A stretch of 64,000 nucleotides of DNA from Octopus vulgaris (lineage: Eukaryota): the NCBI GenBank assembly GCA_951406725.2, contig OX597827.1, positions 27,714,001 to 27,778,000 of the forward strand, in the 5' to 3' direction. The notes below the pieces were generated by a model. That model had not been told where the DNA came from. It searched no databases and saw nothing but the letters and a program-made list of their open reading frames with translations. The translations under genes were made by a program, and so were the position numbers. Each line of letters begins with the position of its first letter. The first letter of the stretch is position 1. This document shows, in pieces, positions 2,100-34,777 of this stretch.

Positions 2100-4200
2100 A
2101 GTTTCTCTGTATAAGAATGTGGTTAAGAGTGGTTAAGTTTGGGCTTATATTTTTCAATGAAGAATGTTTCCTTGTTTAATCTAATTTGTGTTGGTGTTCC
2201 AATAGCACATTGATAAAGTGGAAAGATTAAAAATTGTGGTAGTAGTTGCTTTGCGCATTTCTCAATATGCTCACTAAAGGGTATCATTCTGTATTCTGGG
2301 AATGCAATCAGTTGTCGATGCAGTGTTTTGGTGGCAGCCCGAGCATCTTATGACATAAATTATGTTTTCAGAAGCACAAGTAAAATTAGATTTGATCTTG
2401 AATTTTTGTCCCTCTTTGAAGAGGAATTCTGATCCTTCTAGAAGGTTTGGGCATGTTGCGCAGTTTGGTCTACTACATTTTTTTACTTTTGCATCCGTAA
2501 TTTCAGAAAATAATTTTGCCTTTGTGAGAGAATTTGTTTTTAAGTATGTTTAGAATTTCCTTTAATTTGGGGTCCTTATGAAGTATTGGTAAATTCTGGG
2601 TGATGATGGAGAAGGCTTCTTTGTTTCTGGGGTTGTATGTGGATATGTAAGGCAGTATTTTCGGGGAAGGTGTGTTGTTGTGTTGAACTTTTCTCAAAGT
2701 TTCTATGTCGATTTCTGTTGCACGTCTGATCCCATCCTCTATGAGTTGAGCTGGGTAGTGTCTGTCAATAAGGGTCTTTTTGAGTTCTTGTAGCCTAAAG
2801 TTCCTGGTATTTTGTTCTGACACTATTGTGCATATCCTTCTTGCAAGGTTGAAAGGGATGTTTGTTTTAGTGTGTTTTGGGTGGCATGAATCAAAAAGTA
2901 GGTATTGTTTAGCGTCTGTGGCTTTGTAAAAAATGTCTGTTTCTATTTTAAGGTTAATTTTTTAAATTAGTATATCTAAGAATGGAAGCTCCTTTTGGTT
3001 GTATTCCATTGTGAACTGTATATTTGGGTTGATGCTGTTCAATAGGTTTTTGAATTTTAGGAGTTTATCTGTGTTTTCATTCCAGAGTATAAAACAATCG
3101 TCCAGGAATCGTTTTCAATTCTCTTTTATGTATTGAGAGAGGGGGTTTCCAAAGGTCGATAAAGATTCCTGGTAAACAATTATTTCCAGGTAGCCCATTG
3201 TTAGGTTCGCAATGACTGGTGCTGCCATAATTATGAGGTATACTGGTATATAAATTAACTACATCAAATGAAACCATGATTGTTTCTTCCTTGACTTTTT
3301 TTGGAAGGTGGTTTAACATATCCAAGTCATCTCTGATATGACTATCGATATTTTAAGGAAGGGTTTCAGGAGGATGTCCATAAATAGACTTAATCTGTGT
3401 GTTTCACAGGTTGGGCCAGCAACAATGGGTCGTAGTTTTAGGTCCCCCGGGTTAGGTGTGTGTATGTATGACTTTGGTGATTTTTTAATGGTTTCATTTA
3501 TAATTTGGCTTTTATGTATTTTTGGCAGGCCATAGAAGAGGCTAGGCTTGCATTTAAAGTTTGTCAGAAAGTCAATCTCTTTGGTTGTTAGTTCCTTTTC
3601 ATGGGTTTTAATTAGTGAAGATAGAGTTTTCATTATTTTTTGCGGGGTGTAGCTGGTAATTTTTTCATAATGTTGATTGTCATCAAGCAAGGAAATTACA
3701 AGATTTCTATAGTATGATGTATCCATTATTACAACTGCACTTCCTTTGTCTGCTTCCTTAATGGTTATATCTTCATCATTTTGAAGTTCTATCAGTTCCT
3801 TCCATTGTGTAGTGTTAAAATTTGAGTTAACTGTTTGTTTATGTATAGTATGGTAGGGAAAGTTCTCAATGTGGCTGCAGAACTCGTCAAGATCTTTATT
3901 TCTTCCTCTGTGGTGGATGTGTTCACTTTTGTTCTTGACTAGTGATTCATCTTCAGTATTGAAACTGGATGATGCTTCTGCTAGTCTTAATTTTCTGCAA
4001 AATTCTGTTATATTATCCTTGATTTCATTTAGGTTGGCTTGCGTGGAATTGGCGTAAATTTTAGCCCTTTTGAGAGGATGTCAATTTTTATGTTAGAGAG
4101 AGGTTTGGTTGAAAGGTTGATTATCTTCGGTTTTTCCTTATTACTAGGTTCCAGCCTGTGTCCTGGTGTCTCTGATCCCGGGCTAAAAAATGTTGGGTGT
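2100..4200 (-). pseudogene. Penelope-type RT/GIY-YIG polyprotein, frameshifted and internally deleted
   Basis: ORFs 3313..3726, 3077..3325 and 2503..2823 are consecutive pieces. The RT jumps from SIPHNYG to MAAPVIANL, implying a deletion, and part of the GIY-YIG is missing relative to 45705..46184. Confidence 0.85.
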
Positions 4201-19017: not shown

Positions 19018-19243
19018 TTATCCCACGATGGACGGACGCTAGTCATATCGGCTCTACGTAAGTTGGCCACTTTTACATGTTTAAAACTCCTTGTTGATAA
19101 ATATTTTGTTTTAATCGTTGTGCAAGTTCATTCACTAAAAAACCTGAGAATTATTCACGTAGAATTCCGCCCCTGTATGGGCGAAATTACCAAAAACTTT
19201 CAAAACTTTCGTTGTTTCTTTTTAGCCATTTTTCATTTTGAAA

Positions 19244-21241
19244 ATGGCAACTAGAAACCACGTGGCTAGCCCGCCAGTCATGCAGAACGGTAGCGAAACA
19301 CTATTGCTACCACTAGCTGCTAAACCTCGCAGCTTGAACACCGCTGTCACCACCAACAACAACAGCAAAACTAACGGCGCAAGACCATTCACCATAGCCG
19401 CGACCGAAAACATTAACTTAGATTTCCCCCCACTCCCTACACCACTTGTCGATGATAAAAGGACGGAGAAAGGGATTTCAAAAACGAATACAGACGAAAA
19501 CATGAATGCCAGCACCACCACCATCACCACCAACAACAACAACAACGAAATGGGCACAAAGCCGCTTACCAAAGACAACACCTCCAACACCAACGCCACT
19601 ACTACGACTTCAACTGCTACAACTAACCCTTCTGCTGCCAACACCGCCAACACCAACACCACTACCACGACTTCAACTGCTACAACTAACCCTTCTGTTG
19701 CTAACACCGCAAAATTTAAAACGAATTTTGCGGATGTGACAAAACAAAAACGAACAATTGTAAAATTCACCACACAGGAAATAAACCGCACAAAAGCACT
19801 CTTCACCAAAGAAGGAGACAAATTGCACCTTCACATTCCACAACACATCGTGGAAAACACAAAAAAAAAATCAATAATTTATAAAGTAATAAACAAGAAA
19901 ACAAGACGAACAGAAAATGCACCGCAGGAAAAAATTGAAAAATGCCTTCGTCCTGCATGGGACTCCAAGGAATATATCAGTTGGGGAAATAAATTTGGTA
20001 CAGTCCAAGTACGTTTCCTCAACGAAAATTTAGCAAAACGTTTTTCCACATTGGAGTTGCATTCGGACGACTTGGTAATGATACCAGTCTATTTAAACAA
20101 GAGAGTCACGAAAGTCCATATAAAAAAGGTACCCCTTGAAGTCGTAACACAATGGTTAGTCTCTGCCATCTGCTTTGAAATGACAGAGACAATGTCAGAG
20201 ACAAACATCCTTGAAATCGCTGTTCTAGGAGAGAAAGACTATGTGGGAAAATCAATCGAATTCCTTCTTCAATTGGATGAAGCAGCAAGAGAGAAGATAC
20301 CCACCACTATAGAACTGCCAGGAGGCTACAAACTCTATGTAGTGGTAGAGGGCAGGCGACCACGCTGCTATTTGTGTGGAAGCGAAACACACTTGAAAAA
20401 GACGTGCCCAACCACTGCACACCAAGAGCAACAACAACAACCACTACCACAACCAAAGCACTCCGGAAAAAAAGCTCTACTACCCACACCACCATCAACA
20501 CAGAAGACGACAAGAGAAGCACACCAAGCTAATCCGTCATCAACCAAAAACCACTCAACACCTGAAAAAATACCAACACCACCAACAACAGCAAGAACCA
20601 AAGGAACAGAAAAACAAAGAAAACACACAAAAACTGATCCCCCATCCCTTATACCGCACTCAACACACACAAACACTCAACAACCAACAATAACGAAAAC
20701 AACAACACAACCACTTACACAGACATACATAGAAGCCCACAACATACCCCTACCTCCTACTGATTCCTCAGAAATTTCGTCGGAAGACGAAACCAGTGAG
20801 GAATGGCAAATAGCTACAAAAAGAAGGAAAATAAAGAGCAGAAACACAACCAAACCAAATGCAAACACGAACAAAGCAGGGGGAAATACATCTCCCGAAG
20901 ACATTTCAAAACCCAACACAAACAACAGCCACACCAACACCACAAAAATATATACAGCAAACATGCTCACAGCTATATACACCAAAAACACAAATTTGAT
21001 GGAATACATCCAATCAAAAACAAACATAACAGAAGATGACATAAAAACAATCACCCATACACAACACCACCAGACCACATCAAAATATTACACATCTCCA
21101 AAAGTCTGCACCACACACTCAAAGGCATTTTCCCCAGTGCGGTTGGTAAATGCCAAAAATATCTCACAAAGAAACTGTACTGGGATCTCCTCGAGGACAA
21201 ACCAAAGGAGGAGAAAGCAAAAACTTTCGAGCAGTAAGTAA
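19244..21241 (+). CDS. LINE ORF1 nucleic-acid-binding protein
   Basis: Open for about 665 codons from the ATG at 19244. [24 protein letters not shown] is a Tx1-type zinc knuckle, flanked by Thr/Asn/Pro-rich disordered regions. The C-terminus may be frameshifted. Confidence 0.8.
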
Positions 21242-21281
21242 CCCTCTGTTCCTTTCACTTGTATTCTAATTCATTAGGATT

Positions 21282-24200
21282 ATGATCAAGATTGGTTGTG
21301 TAAATGCGCGTGGCTTGGGGTCCCTTTGGAAACAAGGGTACCTCTTAAATGACATAAAGTCACATAAGTTAGAAATCATAGCCATAAGTGAGACCAGACT
21401 CCACAAACCGCGGGTCCTAAAGACCATGTTTGGCGGACAGTTCAACATTTATTTTCCCCCTGTCTGCCGAGAATGGGCGGTAGTGGCACCGCGGTACTTT
21501 TTCGCAAGAGTCTGGATCTCAAAGTAAGGACAATATTCGTAGACCCGGAGGGTAGACTGGTCGTCCTGGATGTCGACGGCAGCAATGGGTGCGCTTTTCG
21601 ACTCGTATCAGTCTACGCACCGCCCTTAACAGGTCGGGCGGATTTCTTTCAACGTCTAGAAGTATTCTTGGGAACGTCTCGTCCTTTACTCTTAGTGGGG
21701 GATTGGAATGCTACCTTGGACACGCATGTAGACTACGTGGGTAGAGATAGGAATAGACGGGGATGCAAATGCCTCAGAGACCTGCTCAGACGCTTTCAAC
21801 TGTCTGACAGGTTCCGACTAGACCACCCGAATGCGCCAACGTGGACATGGAGCAACCGCATCGGGTCGTCGAGATCGTATCTAGATAGGATACTCTGTAG
21901 GACAGTAGACAGAGATAGCATAGGATGTCCACAATTCCACATAGTCAGCTACACGGATCACAAACTTGTGACATGTACGCTAGACTTAGGTAAGACACAT
22001 AGGCAGGGTCCCGGATACTGGAAACTAAACGCGTCTTTCCCATCGAGACAGGTTTTCAGAGACCGGATTAGCACACTAGTAAAGAGGGTTTTGACGGGGG
22101 CCATCATCAACAACAAATGGTGGTTTGCCCTCAAGAGAGCAGTAAAAGCTGAAGCGATTAGGTACAGCAAAGCACTAGCCATAGATAGAAATAGAGTAGA
22201 GGGTGAGCTAGTTAAGAAGCTAGAAGAGGCAATTAGAAGCGGCATCGCATCCGACGTTTTGGCGGCGAGGTTTGCCCTCGACCAACACTTCAACGCCAAA
22301 CACGAAGGATGTGCTGTCAGAGCTAGGACGCGTGCTCTAAGGAACGAAGGTGTTGGAGCCGCGAGAGAGGCCCTGGTGGCAGAGGCGCAACAGGGCAACA
22401 AAGCCACCATTCGGTCCCTGGTAGATGAACAGGGGCGCGAATTGCTTGAGCCAAGTAAAATGTGTGAGGCCTTTCAGCAGCATTTTGCCCGACTGTTCGG
22501 GACGAGTGGAGGGCAAGAACGTAGGGTGGACTTCAGTGCCTACCTACATAGCCTACCACGACTCTCGACAAGAAAGGCAGGGTGCTGTGAAGGTGCCATC
22601 ACGGCGGCGGAAGTGCAGGACGCGATGGCAGAATGCTCGAGGGACAAATCACTGGGTTTGGATGGTCTATCCTACGAGCTTTACAATTATATGCCAGACT
22701 TGTTTGGAGATCTCTTGGCGGCGGTGTCCTGCAACTGGCAGAAAAACGGGATCATTCCTGGTTTTGTGAGCCGAGGAGCCGTAACACTGCTGAAGAAAGA
22801 TCTAAACAAGGGAAATGTAATAAATAACTTTAGGCCCATCACTCTGCTTAATGCAGACTTGAAAATTTTGACCAAGGTGCTAGCCAAGAGGTTGGCGCTT
22901 GTCATCGAGAAACTGGTCGACAAGGCGCAAACATGCGCCGTGCCGGGCCGGACCATCCATGACAACCTCCACCTGATGCGCTACATCATAGACAGGGTAG
23001 TTAACGAACCTGGCATGGGTGGGGCGCTGATCAATTTGGCTCAATCGAAAGCTTTCGATAGGGTAGACCATCGATACTTGGAGGCGGTCCTCAGAGCGGC
23101 TGGCTACGGTCCCGTCTTCCGCGGCTGGATAGCCGCTTTATACAGAGGCATCCGTTCGGTAATTCGCGTGAATGGACATCTATCGAGACCCTTCGACATC
23201 GCACGTTCGGTCCGTCAGGGATGCCCCCTCTCGTCGCTTCTATACGTATTGACTCTCGAGCCATTATTGCGGAAGCTGGCAACTTTGAGGGGCATCCCGC
23301 GAGAACTGGGATGCGGGACGAGCGTGTCTGCATACGCGGACGACGTCACCGTCATAGTGTCTAGCCACGAGCACATCGAGCAGGTCGGCAAGACACTGAA
23401 AAACTACGAAGCGGTGACAGGAGCGAAAATCAACCGGGAAAAGTCAGTGGGCTTGCGACTAGGCACCTGGAGAAGCAAGCCCATGCCGTCCATCAGCGCC
23501 TCCGTCGTGGGACGCTGGACCGACGGCCCGGTTGAGTTGCTCGGGGTCTGGTTTGGTCCGGACCTCCAAGTGGAGAAGAACTGGAACGAGATAACGAGTA
23601 GGGTGGTCACTCTCGCCCGGCAATAGGCCGAGAGGAAACTGTCCCTAAAAGGTCGGGCGGAGGTGGCGAACACGTACATCGCGTCCGTCATCTACTACCG
23701 CCTGACCGTCGTACCTTGTCCCGACCCTACCATCACCAAACTAGAACGCATTCTCTTTCGCTTCTTGTGGAAAGGATGCGTCCCGATGGTTAGGCGATCC
23801 ATTTGCTGTCAACACCCGTTAAAAGGAGGACTGGGCATGCCGTGGTTGATGATGCGCAGACACACGCTGAGACTGCGACATCTCAGGCTCTTCGTAGACG
23901 ACGGTGAACAGGTGTGGTCGCCGTTTGTGAGGCACGCTTTCCCGCAGCTCGTCTCCATGACCGAACTGCAGTCGTGGATCAAAAAGAGGCCGAGGAAGGG
24001 CGAATGGCACCGCGAGTGTCGCGTTGCTCTCAAGCAACTCTGCCGTCCTGGGTCGACCTTGAGTGACTTCAACACAACCAAAGCATTCTATAGGGGATTA
24101 GTGGAGGGGAGGTACGACGACGAGCTCGGGGCGAACCTGGACGTCGACGAGGAGTACCTGACCCGCCTGTTCAGGACGACTTTCCGGCCAGGGCCCATGG

Positions 24201-24704
24201 ACAACTTCCAGAGATCCCTGGCCTGGCAGTGCTACCGAGAAGCGCTACCCGTTTGGGATAAGCTCTACAGACACGGGGCCGACCTGCCCGAGATGCGGTC
24301 AGAGCGACGAAACCGTTCTGCACGCACTCGTGCAGTGTCCAACAATTTCCGACCTGTTGGCTTATGTCGAACAACTGCTGTCACGTGTGGGACGAGTCGG
24401 TTTATCAGCTGAGTCTATCGTCAATATTGTCACGCCTCCTTACTTCAAACGGGAAGGAAGAGCTATTTTCATCATCCTTGTGGCTATGACGAAAGAATGT
24501 ATCTGGTGGACGCGTCTGAAAGGATTGGAGACAAACACTTACCTCTCTGGTCAATCTCACATCAACTACTTCAAGTACCACTTGAAAAGGAAAGTGAGAG
24601 TAGAGAGGCAAGTTTTGTCTAGCGAATGTTTTAAAAAAAGATGGGTGAATGTAGCAAGGATGGCACGTATGAATGACGAAGCCACCTTGAGCATAATCCT
24701 ATGA
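21282..24704 (+). pseudogene. LINE ORF2 (APE endonuclease, reverse transcriptase, CCHC), disrupted
   Basis: NARGL, ISETR, VGDWNA, SYLDR, TDHK (APE); FRPITLLNADLKI, KAFDRV, VRQGCPLS, AYADD (RT). Frameshift near 21455, TAG at 23624-23626, and a 14-nt deletion near 24275. Confidence 0.9.
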
Positions 24705-29996: not shown

Positions 29997-30479
29997 GTCA
30001 ATAATAAAAGGGCAAAATTAATTAATTATCAATTAATTTTACCAAGTAGTGTTCAGTATGTAAAAAGACCATTAACGGTATATTTAAAACATTATGTTAT
30101 ATACTTAGGCTTCAGTAAAATAATTTACTTTACCACACACCGAACTTTTAGAAATAGCAGCCAAAAAATCTTAGCTATTTCCTCTACTATAAGAAAAGTC
30201 TCCCAGACAATGTATACTCAAAAATAATTCACGCAGGTATAGAGGGAAAAATAACGAAAGATCACACGTACATCGATTACTTGAGAACGCCGTTTCTGGA
30301 TTAGTTGGATATAGAGATCAACATTTCCGTCATCAGCCCAAGATTTCTTTAGGTTTGGATTTGAGAGCACTAAAAATCGACCATACCCGTCTGATATGAG
30401 TAATCCCAGACAAACCATCTTCGACCGCTAGTACTAATGAATTCAAAAAATAGAAATCTTGGGCTGATGACGGAAATGT
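29997..30479. mobile_element. Inverted Penelope-like pLTR remnant with right arm truncated
   Basis: 28-bp inverted repeat at 30321-30348 and 30452-30479 overlapping a hammerhead core; follows (TA)n. Confidence 0.55.
30280..30342 (-). ncRNA. Minimal type I hammerhead motif
   Basis: Minus strand: cttggg-CUGAUGA-cgga...tcca-GAAAC ggc GUU-ctcaag. Stem I is 6 bp, the first stem II pair is mismatched and the GUU triplet is suboptimal. Confidence 0.6.
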
Positions 30480-30509
30480 GCAAGTTGTTTGCAAGACATC
30501 TAAGACCTT

Positions 30510-30657
30510 GTGGTAGGTAACCACTGACAAACCGGATAGACGGTTAGGCATCTTGGAAAGACAAGAGGACTGCTCGGAAAGACCAGCGGACAATAGGAAA
30601 GACTATCGACACCAGGAAAGACTGGCGGAGGCTGCGGACTTACGATCCTCGCCTCTG
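30510..30657 (+). promoter_or_regulatory. Structured 5' UTR: array of five G-GA(A/T)AGA-C hairpins with flanking stems
   Basis: Loops start at 30535, 30556, 30577, 30597 and 30616, each with a different self-complementary stem. Confidence 0.7.
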
Positions 30658-30750
30658 TATTTTATTGTAACAGACATAACAGGAAATGACAGCCCCACGA
30701 TTGACCGAGAGGGGGGAGTCTAGAATCAATCAAACCCAGTCAGCACGGAA

Positions 30751-33700
30751 ATGACCTCTGAAACGAACATGATTATTCATTCGAACAGCGAACGAACTGC
30801 AAACAACTTTGGATGCAAGCTGGGCTATAGAACCTTTGCAACTGAGAGAGGTTTGAAGATACATCAGGGAAAGACTTGTGAGAAGAGGACAGAGCAGTGT
30901 GGATCGTCAGATCGTAAAACACGTGGCAAATCATCCCCGGACTCAAACCACAGCGGATCGATAAATGCTACAGCAGAGAACTCTTCACGTGAAGAAACTA
31001 CAAGTCATGAAACTGGTGCATCAGATAATACTCAGAGGAAACCGAGGGTTTTGTGGCCTGCTGCTAATGAGAAAGTGAAATATAAAGAGTTTGAAAACAA
31101 GGTTTGTCGGGCTCTTTATAAAATGACAGGCTCTACAGTGGAGAAACTGGGAAAATTATCAAGCTCAATATACGATATAGGAAAATATTTATTTGGAATA
31201 AAAGAGAATATCCGACTAGAGAAAGGAAAGTGTGGACCAAGCAGGAGGATCAGAAAAATGCAGCAGTTGAGGAAGGAAAAGTCCGACTTAAGAAAGCGAT
31301 GGAGATGTGCTGCACTAGATGAGAAACCTGGCCTTGCGTTGCTGTATAACGATTTGAAGAGGAAATGTCGTTATGTGCAACGACATATCCGCCGATATGA
31401 GCGTCGAAAAGAAAGTTAAAGGACTCGGAGGCAGTTTCTGAAGGACCCGTACGGGTTTACTAAGAAGCTGTTCACTGAGTGGTACTTTATCGTGCACTAA
31501 AGAAGAATTGGATGCTCATATCAAGGAAACCTACAGCGATCCGCACCGTAATCAGCCGCTGCCACCTCTACATGGGCTAAATCATCTCTCAGGACCTGAT
31601 ATCTAATTCCAGATTGGGGACATCAGGGAGAGAGAGGTGAAAGATTTCGTAAGAAAAGCTAGAGCAAAGAGTGCCCCAGGAGGTGATGGCGTCTCATATA
31701 AAGTCTACAAATACTGCAATCGTCTGCGAAAGAAGCTCTTCGTCCTAATCCGACAACTGTGGCGCGAGGAGACTATAGTAGAGGATTGGTGTAAGGCAGA
31801 AGGTATATACCTGACGAAAGAGGCCAATGCAAAGACCATAAAACAGTTTAGGCCGATATCCTTATTGAATGTGGAAAGCAAGATCATTATGGGAATTCTG
31901 TCGAGGAGAACAGTGGCATATTTACAGAGTAACGGATATGTTGATGAATCTGTTCAAAAGGCCGGAATCCCCGGGATCCCTGGATGCGTTGAACGCTGTT
32001 TTTCGATTTGGAAAGAGATCCAGGATGCCAAACAGAACAAGAAAAGTCTGAACGTGGTATGGCTCGACCTAGCTTACGCGTATGGTTCAGTGCCACACAA
32101 ATTACTAATAACAGCCATGGACCACTTCCACATTCCTGACAAAGTGATCAAAATAATGAGGATGTACTATGAAAGTTTCGAAATGAGGTTTACAACTGGA
32201 AATTTTACAACAAATTGGCACCGATTGGAGGTTGGCATTGCTGCTGGCTGTACAATATCTGTCACGTGGTTTATCTTAGTCATGGAGTTGATTTTAAAAG
32301 GTGTAGATTTTTCGGAACAAATCGCCCATGTACAATCGCCTAAGAAAGCCTTCATGGATGACGTGACACTTCTAGCTACAGATAAACAAATCATGCAGAA
32401 TGCCCTTTTGAGATTAGATGAACTTGTAAGGTGGTCAAGGATGCGATTTAGAGCAAAAAAGTCGCGTAGTCTGACATTTGTTAAGGGAGTGCAGAAAGAA
32501 TTTAAATTTCGAATATCTGAAGAAAGCATTCCAACAGTCAAGGAAGAGCCCGTCAAGAGCTTGGGACGAGTATACGCTGGAACATTGTCAGACAGAAGTC
32601 GTGGGATTGAAATTATGAAACAGGCCGAGGCTGGGTTATCAGCGATTGATGTTTCGAAGTTACCAGGTAAATATAAAATTTGGTGCTTGCAGTTCGGCTT
32701 GTACCCGCGACTTGCGTGGCCACTTGTAATATACGAAGTAGCATTGTCACGAGTTGAAAGGATTGAACAAAAATGTAATGTGTTCATTAGAAAGTGGCTA
32801 GGTCTACCTCGTATGTTGAACAGCTCAGCTCTTTATCATAAAAGAGGTTCGTTGCAGTTACCAATAGCATCAATAGTCGAAATATATAAGTTGGGGGAAG
32901 ATACGGACGGTCATGATGCTGAGAGAATCGAAGGATATGGAAATTAGGCGTAATGCACCAGAGGTGAAAAGAGCCAGGAAGTGGAAAGCAGAAGCAGAAA
33001 CTGACAACATCTTGTCTTCTCTTATACACGGAGATATGGTGGGAGCAACGCAGAACCATCGGAAAGGATTTGGTTTTGGCGCAGATCAGTTCAGACCGTT
33101 TGCAAGCATGATACCGTGTGAACGCAGATCTGTTGTTAGCAACAGCGTCAAAACAAGAGAAGCAGAGAGAAGAGAGCTTCATTTGATCCGATGTGTTCAT
33201 CAAGGTCAGATGACGAGATGGGAAGAACATGTTGTTGAGAGGAAGATAAGTTGGGATGAGATGTGGAAGTGGACGACATCTCGGCTGAGTTTCCTGATTC
33301 GTTCATCTTATGATGTTTTGCCATCACCTACGAATCTAGTAAGATGGAACGTCTTAGAGAATGACATCTGCAAATGTGGAAAAGTCGGTACACTAAAACA
33401 TATTCTTTCCAACTGTTCATTAGCATTGAACAGGTACACATGGAGGCACAACTTGGTCCTTAAGGTTATCTTCAATGCTATAAAGAACCAAATTCATCTC
33501 AACAACACTGAGGAAAAATCGTTAAAAGTACCATCAAGAGAGTTCATTACCTTCGTGCGACCAGGTCAGCAGATCCGTTTCAAGAAGAAGACCAAGAAAC
33601 TTCCTGAGAAAAATGAAAAGTGGAACGGCTATTGGGAAGTAACTGCAGATTTACCTGGGTGCCAGGTTTTCTTTCCCATCTCAGTTTCGAAAAAACCACA

Positions 33701-34037
33701 TATTTTGATGTGGTGTGAAAGAAAGAAAGTTGTAAATATAGTCGAGCTAACGGTTCCTCACGAAGATAATATGGACGCCGCTCGAGCTCGAAAATTAAAC
33801 CGTTATGAAAAGCTCCTCGAGGAATGTGAAGACGCGGGCTGGAAAGCGGAACATTTTCCTATCGAAGTCGGATGTAGAGGGTTTGTAGGACACAGCGTGA
33901 GACGACTGTTGTTATCGTTAGGCCTAACTCATCGTAAAGTCAATACCACCATGACTGATATCCAATCTACAGTGGAGAAGGCTAGCCACTGGATTTGGTT
34001 AAAAAGAGACGATGAGCGATGGCTAGAAGTATATTGA
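30751..34037 (+). pseudogene. Zinc finger-RT-CCHC-RLE polyprotein, disrupted
   Basis: ORF pieces 30751..31419, 31637..32947 and 32913..34037 are separated by stops or frameshifts; the catalytic PD appears as PH. Confidence 0.85.
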
Positions 34038-34229
34038 GTTCTTCATAACCAGCTGATCTAGCAAGCGGGGCTTCATATCAGTGAGGGGGGCCGGTGCGTA
34101 CTGATGCCGTCGAGAGGTAGGCCCCGAAACGGCGCGCATTCTCTCCTGATGACCCCATACACTTGCTAGCTTCCGATATACGGAGCTTTTAACCGGTAGC
34201 ACTTGCATGTGCAAGTTGTTTGCAAGACA

Positions 34230-34334
<105 letters not shown>

Positions 34335-34777
34335 ATATATATATAGTATATTGGGATTTGGATTTCTCTCCTTATACTCTTCCTGCAAATTATAGTCTGG
34401 CCATGAGCAGAATAATTCAACTGGTTTCACCAGATAAAGCTATTTTGGTAAATGTTAATTAATTCCTGAACAACATCCTCTTTTTTGAATGCGTGGAGAG
34501 AGACAGAGAGAGAGTAGGAGAATCAGAAAGAGAAAGAAAGAAAGTGGGAGAGGGAAGAGGAGGGGCAGAGAGAGGATATTGGGATATTGATAATTAAATA
34601 TAATTGATATTCTGTGAATATTTTGATCTAGAATATCTACGTAACTAAGTTAATTACACCTAGGAGAATTAATTGTTACTAAAATATGACAACAAAAGAA
34701 AAACAAAAAAACAAAAAATTTAACCAGCGAACGTCTAATTGTACCGTATTATCGCTTATTATTATCATATTATCTTA

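Follow-up and report, generated by a model that had tools for sequence, protein, structure and literature searches.

In the window, that is, the whole 64,000-nt stretch of Octopus vulgaris DNA that was analysed, five short hairpins stand in a row ~60 nt 5′ of the first AUG of a LINE, and the question is what such an array is for. In the reading that we prefer, to which we give a rough probability of 0.45, the array is a landing pad that would position the element protein to start reverse transcription internally on an RNA that is likely circular. A hammerhead-like fold in the 3′ UTR and the head-to-tail ends of the element provide the context in which the array is to be seen.

The loops of the five hairpins start at 30535, 30556, 30577, 30597 and 30616 (spacing 21, 21, 20 and 19 nt), and the letters of the window and the predicted folds agree with the earlier note on these positions. 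The repeat unit is G(A/G)C-N-stem-GAAAGA-stem, on the + strand. Module 1 (30526–30545) has a GAC linker, a 5-bp stem and a loop with a private A-to-T change, while module 2 (30547–30566) has a GGC linker, a 5-bp stem and a GAAAGA loop. Module 3 (30568–30587) has a GAC linker and a stem that is mismatched in the window copy, and modules 4 (30589–30606) and 5 (30608–30625) both have a GAC linker and a 4-bp stem. Counted as Watson-Crick pairs, the five stems have 5, 5, 1, 4 and 4, the mismatch of hairpin 3 adjoining the closing pair. The linkers had been described as variable, but the G(A/G)C linker is conserved and belongs to the unit. A leader hairpin directly 5′ of module 1 (30510–30524, +) and a closing hairpin 3′ of the array (30626–30657, +) bracket the modules, as had been proposed, and the MFE and centroid folds both contain the five hairpins and the two bracketing stems. 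A CTGG..CCAG hairpin equivalent to the leader hairpin lies 5′ of the array in 13 junction loci of relatives.

Across the 64-kb window, GA(A/T)AGA hexamers on the + strand have a stem of at least 4 bp in 4 of 69 cases, all four being this array, and those on the − strand in 2 of 246, both within TA repeats. The folding z-scores of the array are moderate (−2.5 and −2.1), and since the reverse strand folds equally well (−3.1), folding energy alone cannot choose the strand and the case rests on comparison. The array is present in every copy that covers its region. The GATAGA loop of hairpin 1 is private to the window copy (A at that base in 24 of 25 aligned copies), and the column of the stem-3 mismatch holds the pairing G in 12 of 30 copies, C in 17 and A in one. 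In young copies whose ORFs are unbroken, hairpin 3 is mismatched, so the array need not consist of five perfect units. Within the family, variation amounts to 3.1% in stems, 1.0% in loops and 2.8% at other positions, and compensation is not seen; here the variation of the array looks neutral, with the loops slightly quieter.

Relatives were taken from one metagenome scan, in which 80 of 176 loci were confirmed, mostly 35–57% identical to the sister protein. For these comparisons, the module is defined by a pattern based on sequence only, G(A/G)C-N4-7-G(A/G)N1-2AG(A/T/G). In 33 leader windows of relatives, the matches to this pattern are strand-biased (117 versus 10), and a stem of at least 4 bp is found in 65 of the 117, as against 18 of 616 motif matches within ORFs and, for the reverse strand, 1 of 10. 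Several pair types occur at every stem position of the module. The earlier note had pointed out that the stems differ yet stay paired, and the relatives bear this out by keeping the array with compensated stems. It had also named outcomes that would speak against an array of this kind (homologues that lack it, stem changes that are not compensated, or an array that is flanking DNA), and none of these was found in the sequences examined. At least two units are present in 24 of the 33 leaders, with a peak spacing of 21 nt; among the nine leader windows with fewer than two, several are 5′-truncated copies or the two outgroup loci. The latter are distant (26–27% identity) and have neither array nor ribozyme. 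A second family in G000, with about 49% protein identity, also has the array. In a quick-method RT tree, whose labels were assigned by the author and which includes no named HERO reference, the array and the hammerhead-like fold are spread over the clade. A linker-to-loop pseudoknot should make the middle of the linker covary with the final base of the loop, and no clear covariation of this kind was found among the relatives' modules. The sequence GGAAAGAC presumably resembles a segment of the 23S rRNA peptidyl-transferase region. That the module is real and conserved we regard as very nearly certain.

The element itself is inserted as a copy (30476–34233, +) that consists of one 3731-nt unit (30503–34233) and 27 nt of a second unit. 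Its single ORF (30686–34037, +) is that of an RLE LINE, with an N-terminal zinc finger, RT, CCHC knuckle and restriction-like endonuclease. In the window copy this ORF is broken by stops and frameshifts (pieces 30724–31419, 31607–32947 and 32877–34037), and sister copies in G000 have unbroken frames of 1112–1175 aa. We take the motifs in the unbroken sister protein P0001 to be those known as zinc finger, CCHC and PD-(D/E)xK. RVT_1 matches the element ORF with E=1.5e-18, the best solved relatives of the protein are R2 proteins and also L1, and there is no match to a GIY-YIG domain in the element. Compared by eye with a published alignment (PMC5678591, the accessible part of the supplement), the RT motifs agree with its rows for HERO-1_BF and HERO-2_DR, and, as in HERO, the RT is followed by a CCHC knuckle and a PD-(D/E)xK endonuclease in a single ORF. 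We file the element as a putative Hero-type RLE LINE, an assignment for which the named HERO references were compared by eye only. Homologous proteins are mostly found on contigs of 3.4–4.7 kb, roughly the length of a single element unit, which is what an assembly that collapses tandem or high-copy units would give.

Ten internally deleted derivatives (L010, L013, L014, L017, L022, L023, L024, L028, L091 and L504) have lost the ORF and keep both the array and the ribozyme. In these, the 5′ part is joined to the last 300–630 nt. The breakpoints of L022, L023 and L028 lie within about 20 nt of each other, which suggests amplified non-autonomous families. Because the derivatives retain 260–820 nt of 5′ sequence, the array is not singled out by them.

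The array had been placed in the 5′ UTR of a Hero-like LINE. It is indeed part of the element, and the element is Hero-like as far as the comparison above goes, but the region is not a simple 5′ UTR. Directly upstream of the unit, at 30476–30502 (+), lie 27 nt that are left over from the 3′ end of a preceding element copy and are identical to 34207–34233, so that the copy is a partial, pseudo-LTR-like tandem. We considered this repeat as a target site duplication and rejected it, since other copies carry from 8 to more than 1500 nt of 3′ end at the same place. A leader query gave 90 candidates, of which 40 were scored and 30 fetched (a 3′ query gave 2274). The element's own 3′ end stands directly upstream in 25 of 25 fetched copies that reach the leader start, and the other five of the 30 end inside the array. 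The repeat is longer than 122 nt, and hence extends past the predicted cut of the ribozyme, in 18 of the 25; the longest reported is 1977 nt, in a young copy (L074). An overlapping set of 30 copies, collected with an N-terminal query, has the repeat in 20 and a stop in the leader in ten (within the array in eight of the 30), and none starts at the junction. The first half of the junction has 92 matches, and 20 of 20 tandem junctions are in register, with the proviso that the pattern itself selects the first bases of the junction. Among the relatives, seven contigs are ordered C-terminus, UTR, N-terminus (L293, L305, L314, L336, L337, L344 and L349), so the tandem or circular structure is general. 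The array region is not the true 5′ end of the element; it sits at the 3′-to-5′ junction of head-to-tail copies.

Whether a repeat derives from the copy that it precedes can be judged in a few cases. In three of 12 copies, L079, L082 and L085, the upstream repeat clearly resembles the 3′ end of the same copy more than that of any other; the differences to the own end versus the nearest other copy are 4 versus 13, 8 versus 13 and 11 versus 19, respectively. L083 (16 versus 9) and L074 (11 versus 6) are contrary, and most young copies cannot discriminate. Contigs of four of 24 listed runs were examined (X1, X5, X6 and X15). In X1, which we guess to be RNA, one contig spans the 3′-to-5′ junction and the array, a kind of evidence that cannot show ends, strand or circles.

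The 3′ ends of the insertions are staggered at 34227–34236 (+), which we infer to be the priming point, 122 nt downstream of the predicted cut. By hand count of the first 100 of 936 junctions, these ends spread over about 2–9 nt and have no poly(A). In the same first 100, the flanks are unrelated and many are TA repeats, so insertion is non-specific or biased towards microsatellites, and AT is found at 89 of the junctions, hinting at an AT target preference. The leader's G continues 29 of 72 non-tandem ends that reach CTAA (p=8e-6 against 18%). No convincing target site duplication is seen around 13 whole copies, where shared stretches are 3–5 nt or microsatellite. In all seven comparable families, the insertion 3′ end lies 6–27 nt upstream of the first module: 21–27 nt in the window family, 8–10 in the second family, 16 in L285/L324 (via blast, the other six families by eye), 18 in L309 and in L304/L317, 17 in L290/L291 and about 6 in L299/L301.

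The 3′ UTR contains a predicted hammerhead-like ribozyme with the rare S-G-C order (34060–34165, +). Helix P1 pairs 34067–34070 with 34153–34156, P2 occupies 34071–34086, and stem II pairs 34087–34092 with 34120–34125. The first block is the cleavage site, with the predicted cut after C34111, and it is followed by GAAA (34126–34129) and then CUGAUGA (34146–34152); stems I and III have 6 bp each, and all hammerhead core bases are present. The core is found in 21 of 30 loci that have the ORF end and 260 nt beyond, and a perfect four-way junction in 20 of the 30, with no hit in 263 kb of minus strand or in 180 kb of ORF. The nine misses comprise two with a U3-A8 core, three that look decayed by eye, the two outgroup loci and two with nothing. 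In an alignment of 20 folds, the only invariant columns are hammerhead core bases; position 7 varies, and every cleavage triplet is NUH. Positions 3 and 8 are C-G, or U-A in one lineage (L304, L305 and L317), and a U3-A8 swap is reported for Penelope hammerheads in the accessible text of PMC4209133. Stems I and III show many pair types across 24 distinct folds, with partner-swapped controls at 0.52 and 0.69; the stems were used to detect the fold, so these pairing percentages are biased.

The predicted fold differs from the canonical one around stem II. The 10.1-11.1 pair is absent in all 20 four-way folds and also in the window, and C11.1 pairs with a G of the upstream strand in 26 of 26. Stem II is rebuilt as a four-way junction with P1 and P2, and A9 leads into another helix. 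The helix that joins the stem I and stem II sides has 5–11 bp in 19 of 20 folds and 3 bp in one. Plain folding of the 3′ UTR gives z = 0.24, which is expected for a pseudoknotted fold and therefore uninformative. In G000, copies that start exactly at 34112 number 11 among 710 matches, versus 1 and 3 at control sites (p=0.002; counted by hand, two ambiguous rows excluded). The last flanking base of these copies is T in nine of the 11, and AT in six of these. Some 98% of copies continue past the predicted cut, a pattern that a slow or inactive ribozyme would give as well. We consider the ribozyme probably active.

The module is not confined to Hero elements, as the earlier note had framed it, and occurs in phages and bacteria. 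With patterns chosen on sequence only there are 90 distinct viral matches, of which 53 have both stems of at least 4 bp (~290 stretches estimated), and 86 distinct bacterial matches, of which 44 have both (~230 estimated). A set of 144 paired cases divides into 47 in the interior of tmRNA, ten at most 100 nt away from a tRNA, 20 immediately ahead of a ribosome-binding site and 67 elsewhere. All but one of the 47 tmRNA cases are bacterial, making up 46 of 71 bacterial paired cases, and their record titles are dominated by Acidimicrobiia. Wherever a tRNA or tmRNA neighbours the module in the 144 cases, it is on the same strand (57 same, 0 opposite). In phages the module stands just before a ribosome-binding site in 18 of 73 cases, and nine of ten ORFs tested behind it belong to phrog_13908, whose function is not annotated and which is weakly like head scaffolding proteins. 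In most phrog_13908 genes found, the module lies 14–19 nt 5′ of the start codon (e.g., L165:1247-2137). No Hero relatives were found in viral contigs.

Several individual arrangements are of interest. In tmRNAs of the Acidimicrobiia type, the region of pseudoknot 3 contains three modules in tandem (L365, L366, L369, L398, L402 and L434). A phage tRNA cluster (L098:3231-3298 and 4126-4193) includes two hammerheads of type II as well as an array of the module lying between tRNAs. Runs of five or more units occur in a Pseudophaeobacter genome (L370 and L403), and in a Saccharibacteria genome a module pair stands directly 3′ of the 16S rRNA gene (L381:701-738). A search of window positions 30300–34400 with Rfam 15 (E up to 1) gave a TA-repeat match only, leaving the array and the 3′ UTR fold unmatched. 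In 56 phage and bacterial loci, Rfam matched the tmRNAs that contain the module, and neighbouring RNAs, and never the module itself. We found no description of the module in a literature search, which was not exhaustive, so an earlier description is possible. The module is probably an RNA fold complete in itself, which phages and bacteria employ in different contexts.

The preferred reading joins these results as follows. A partial-tandem copy of the kind observed would be transcribed through two copies of the ribozyme, whose cores and stems are in place, and both would cut after C34111 to release a unit-length RNA of ~3.7 kb. Its ends would be ligated into a circle. The protein would then bind at or near the array and nick non-specific, AT-rich DNA, and priming would occur 6–27 nt upstream of the first module, where the insertions end, through 2–9 nt of microhomology. 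Copying would proceed through the 3′ UTR, the ORF and the array and then round the junction, and a random stop would leave the partial tandem that is found in the genome. A circle primed internally is the simplest explanation of the cut 122 nt before the insertion end, the repeats that cross the cut, the in-register junctions and the lack of a 5′ end; on these grounds the template is somewhat more probably circular and closed at the ribozyme site than not. Our figure of 0.45 applies also to the whole chain of predicted self-cleavage, circle and array-positioned internal priming.

We favour a protein-loading, start-site-setting role for the array, since on such a circle it would be the first structure downstream of the priming point in the families checked and since it is kept in ORF-deleted derivatives. 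The evidence against protein loading is that bacterial copies of the module cannot bind the Hero protein, and the phage modules before ribosome-binding sites favour a translation role, although the two roles are not exclusive. The main rival reading keeps the same ribozyme and circle but takes the array to serve cap-independent translation by attracting the ribosome or a conserved factor, which would be needed in an RNA that, once cleaved or closed into a circle, is uncapped. The position ~60 nt before the first AUG, the 14–19 nt before the start codon in one phage gene family (phrog_13908) and the 46 of 71 bacterial paired cases inside tmRNA, a ribosome-bound RNA, all fit, as does the link between self-cleavage and cap-independent translation that the accessible texts report for viruses (PMC13725137) and for R2 and L1Tc (PMC6765202). 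We nevertheless consider this rival rather unlikely, because the array is retained by derivatives without an ORF, the modules beside tRNA genes (10 of 144) and after the 16S gene (L381) precede no ORF, and the fixed distance of 6–27 nt to the insertion ends is left unexplained. A doubtful alternative, less probable again, is a protein-free shield or rigid spacer that blocks 5′-to-3′ decay or prevents the ribozyme and ORF from misfolding together. The array does lie 145 nt downstream of the predicted ribozyme-made 5′ end, eight of 30 copies stop within it as expected of a stable structure, and elsewhere the module is found in a tmRNA pseudoknot region and flanking tRNAs, always on the RNA strand. 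Yet a circle, being closed, would not have to be protected at a 5′ end, the stems measure no more than 4–5 bp, and a tertiary contact is not demonstrable because the linker C and the loop G are invariant.

The circle itself could be dispensed with if the RNA were linear and the partial tandems arose by RT jumping from the 5′ end to the 3′ end of templates, or by read-through from a tandem source; the fold would then be slow or protein-binding, and the array would mark the 5′ end or an internal promoter. The RT of R2 is able to jump between templates, most copies read through the predicted cut, and the own-repeat test is mixed. This account is unlikely in view of the 20 of 20 junction matches in register and the absence of any start at the junction among 30 copies; moreover, the U3-A8 swap speaks for a catalytic core, as does the excess of starts at 34112, and if read-through were the only process, the repeats would shrink from one generation to the next, yet those of young copies reach 1977 nt. 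It is highly improbable that the array is flanking DNA or a tandem repeat that has diverged neutrally. The moderate folding z-score, which is not strand-specific, and the lack of compensation within the family would fit, but the array is in all copies covering the region, its motif is biased 117 to 10 towards one strand, and paired, differing stems are kept across the RT tree.

If the preferred reading holds, the element would combine features of several known systems. It shares with the HERO clade (HERO-1_BF and HERO-2_DR) the single ORF, the RT and the C-terminal RLE. HERO is described without a strict target site in the available text of PMC4640811, and the 3′ junctions of the window element likewise indicate none. 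In our literature search we found no description of HERO with a hammerhead, a tandem end or a leader array; the search was not exhaustive, and an earlier description is possible. Penelope-like elements and non-LTR retrozymes form partial head-to-tail tandems with a hammerhead in the repeated part, and a circular RNA template has been proposed to explain more-than-unit copying (PMC4209133; bioRxiv 10.64898/2026.07.22.740005; both as far as their available text goes). The partial tandem ends, holding a hammerhead that is predicted in the window element, are thus shared with Penelope-like elements. Penelope, however, has a telomerase-like RT with GIY-YIG, as opposed to the LINE RT and RLE of the window element; and unlike in Penelope and the retrozymes, the ribozyme predicted here is not type I and a hairpin array stands at the priming site.

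Type-SGC hammerheads were validated in vitro and not found in genomes of known organisms, according to the accessible part of Eckert et al. 2023 (PMC10085705), which places stem II between blocks G and C and assumes the blocks to be uninterruptible. The predicted fold shares with that type, as described there, the S-G-C order, a linker between stems I and II that is short, and an additional helix that connects the sides of these two stems. It differs in that stem II is not between blocks G and C, the pairing G being upstream, and in that it sits in an animal genome. For R2, the available text of PMC6765202 describes a 5′ HDV-like ribozyme that would release the RNA of the element and, ahead of an ORF without a cap, a structured, IRES-like leader. 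A ribozyme, here a predicted one, and a structured leader before the ORF are common to both, but the window element has a ribozyme of another class, located in the 3′ UTR, whose cut does not define the inserted ends; no HDV ribozyme match was found in the element (Rfam, window 30300–34400).

Lambda boxB and CsrB-type arrays are also series of short hairpins in which a purine loop stays constant while the stems vary; at the boxB/N site the hairpin has a GNRA-like pentaloop, is accompanied by boxA and binds an arginine-rich peptide. The array resembles such systems in its repeated short hairpins, constant purine loop and variable stems. It differs from them in its loop of 6–7 nt ending in AG(A/T/G), in the G(A/G)C linker that precedes it and in having no Rfam match, and the boxB comparison is an analogy only.

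What we judge to be new is a Hero LINE that would work like a Penelope element, an SGC-like hammerhead with new wiring, as predicted, and an uncatalogued module that crosses domains. The broadest statement is that Hero LINEs are rolling-circle retrotransposons: a hammerhead of new topology, its catalytic strand interrupted by a four-way junction, would cut and close their RNA, and target-primed reverse transcription would begin within the circle at a site set by an ancient module that also occurs in phage mRNAs, tRNA operons and bacterial tmRNA, so that a single fold or conserved partner would serve in more than one domain of life. This is tentative and falls somewhat short of even odds. If true, an RLE-type LINE would replicate through a Penelope-like circle, against the textbook start of LINEs at the RNA 3′ end; animal genomes would hold a natural hammerhead whose topology violates the block rule by which the possible permutations were enumerated; and an uncatalogued RNA module would be represented hundreds of times among bacteria, phages and the retroelements of animals. 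Priming inside a circle by a non-site-specific relative of R2 would also be of interest for retrotransposon-based gene insertion.

Two other features of the window may be mentioned. A second, unrelated LINE at 19226–24412 has Exo_endo_phos (apurinic endonuclease) and RVT_1 domains, and the 671-aa frame that precedes it has no Pfam match. Upstream of the Hero element lies a MITE-like pair of 28-nt inverted repeats (30322–30349 and 30453–30480), and the 5′ junction of the Hero copy overlaps the last four bases of the inverted repeat, which suggests microhomology.
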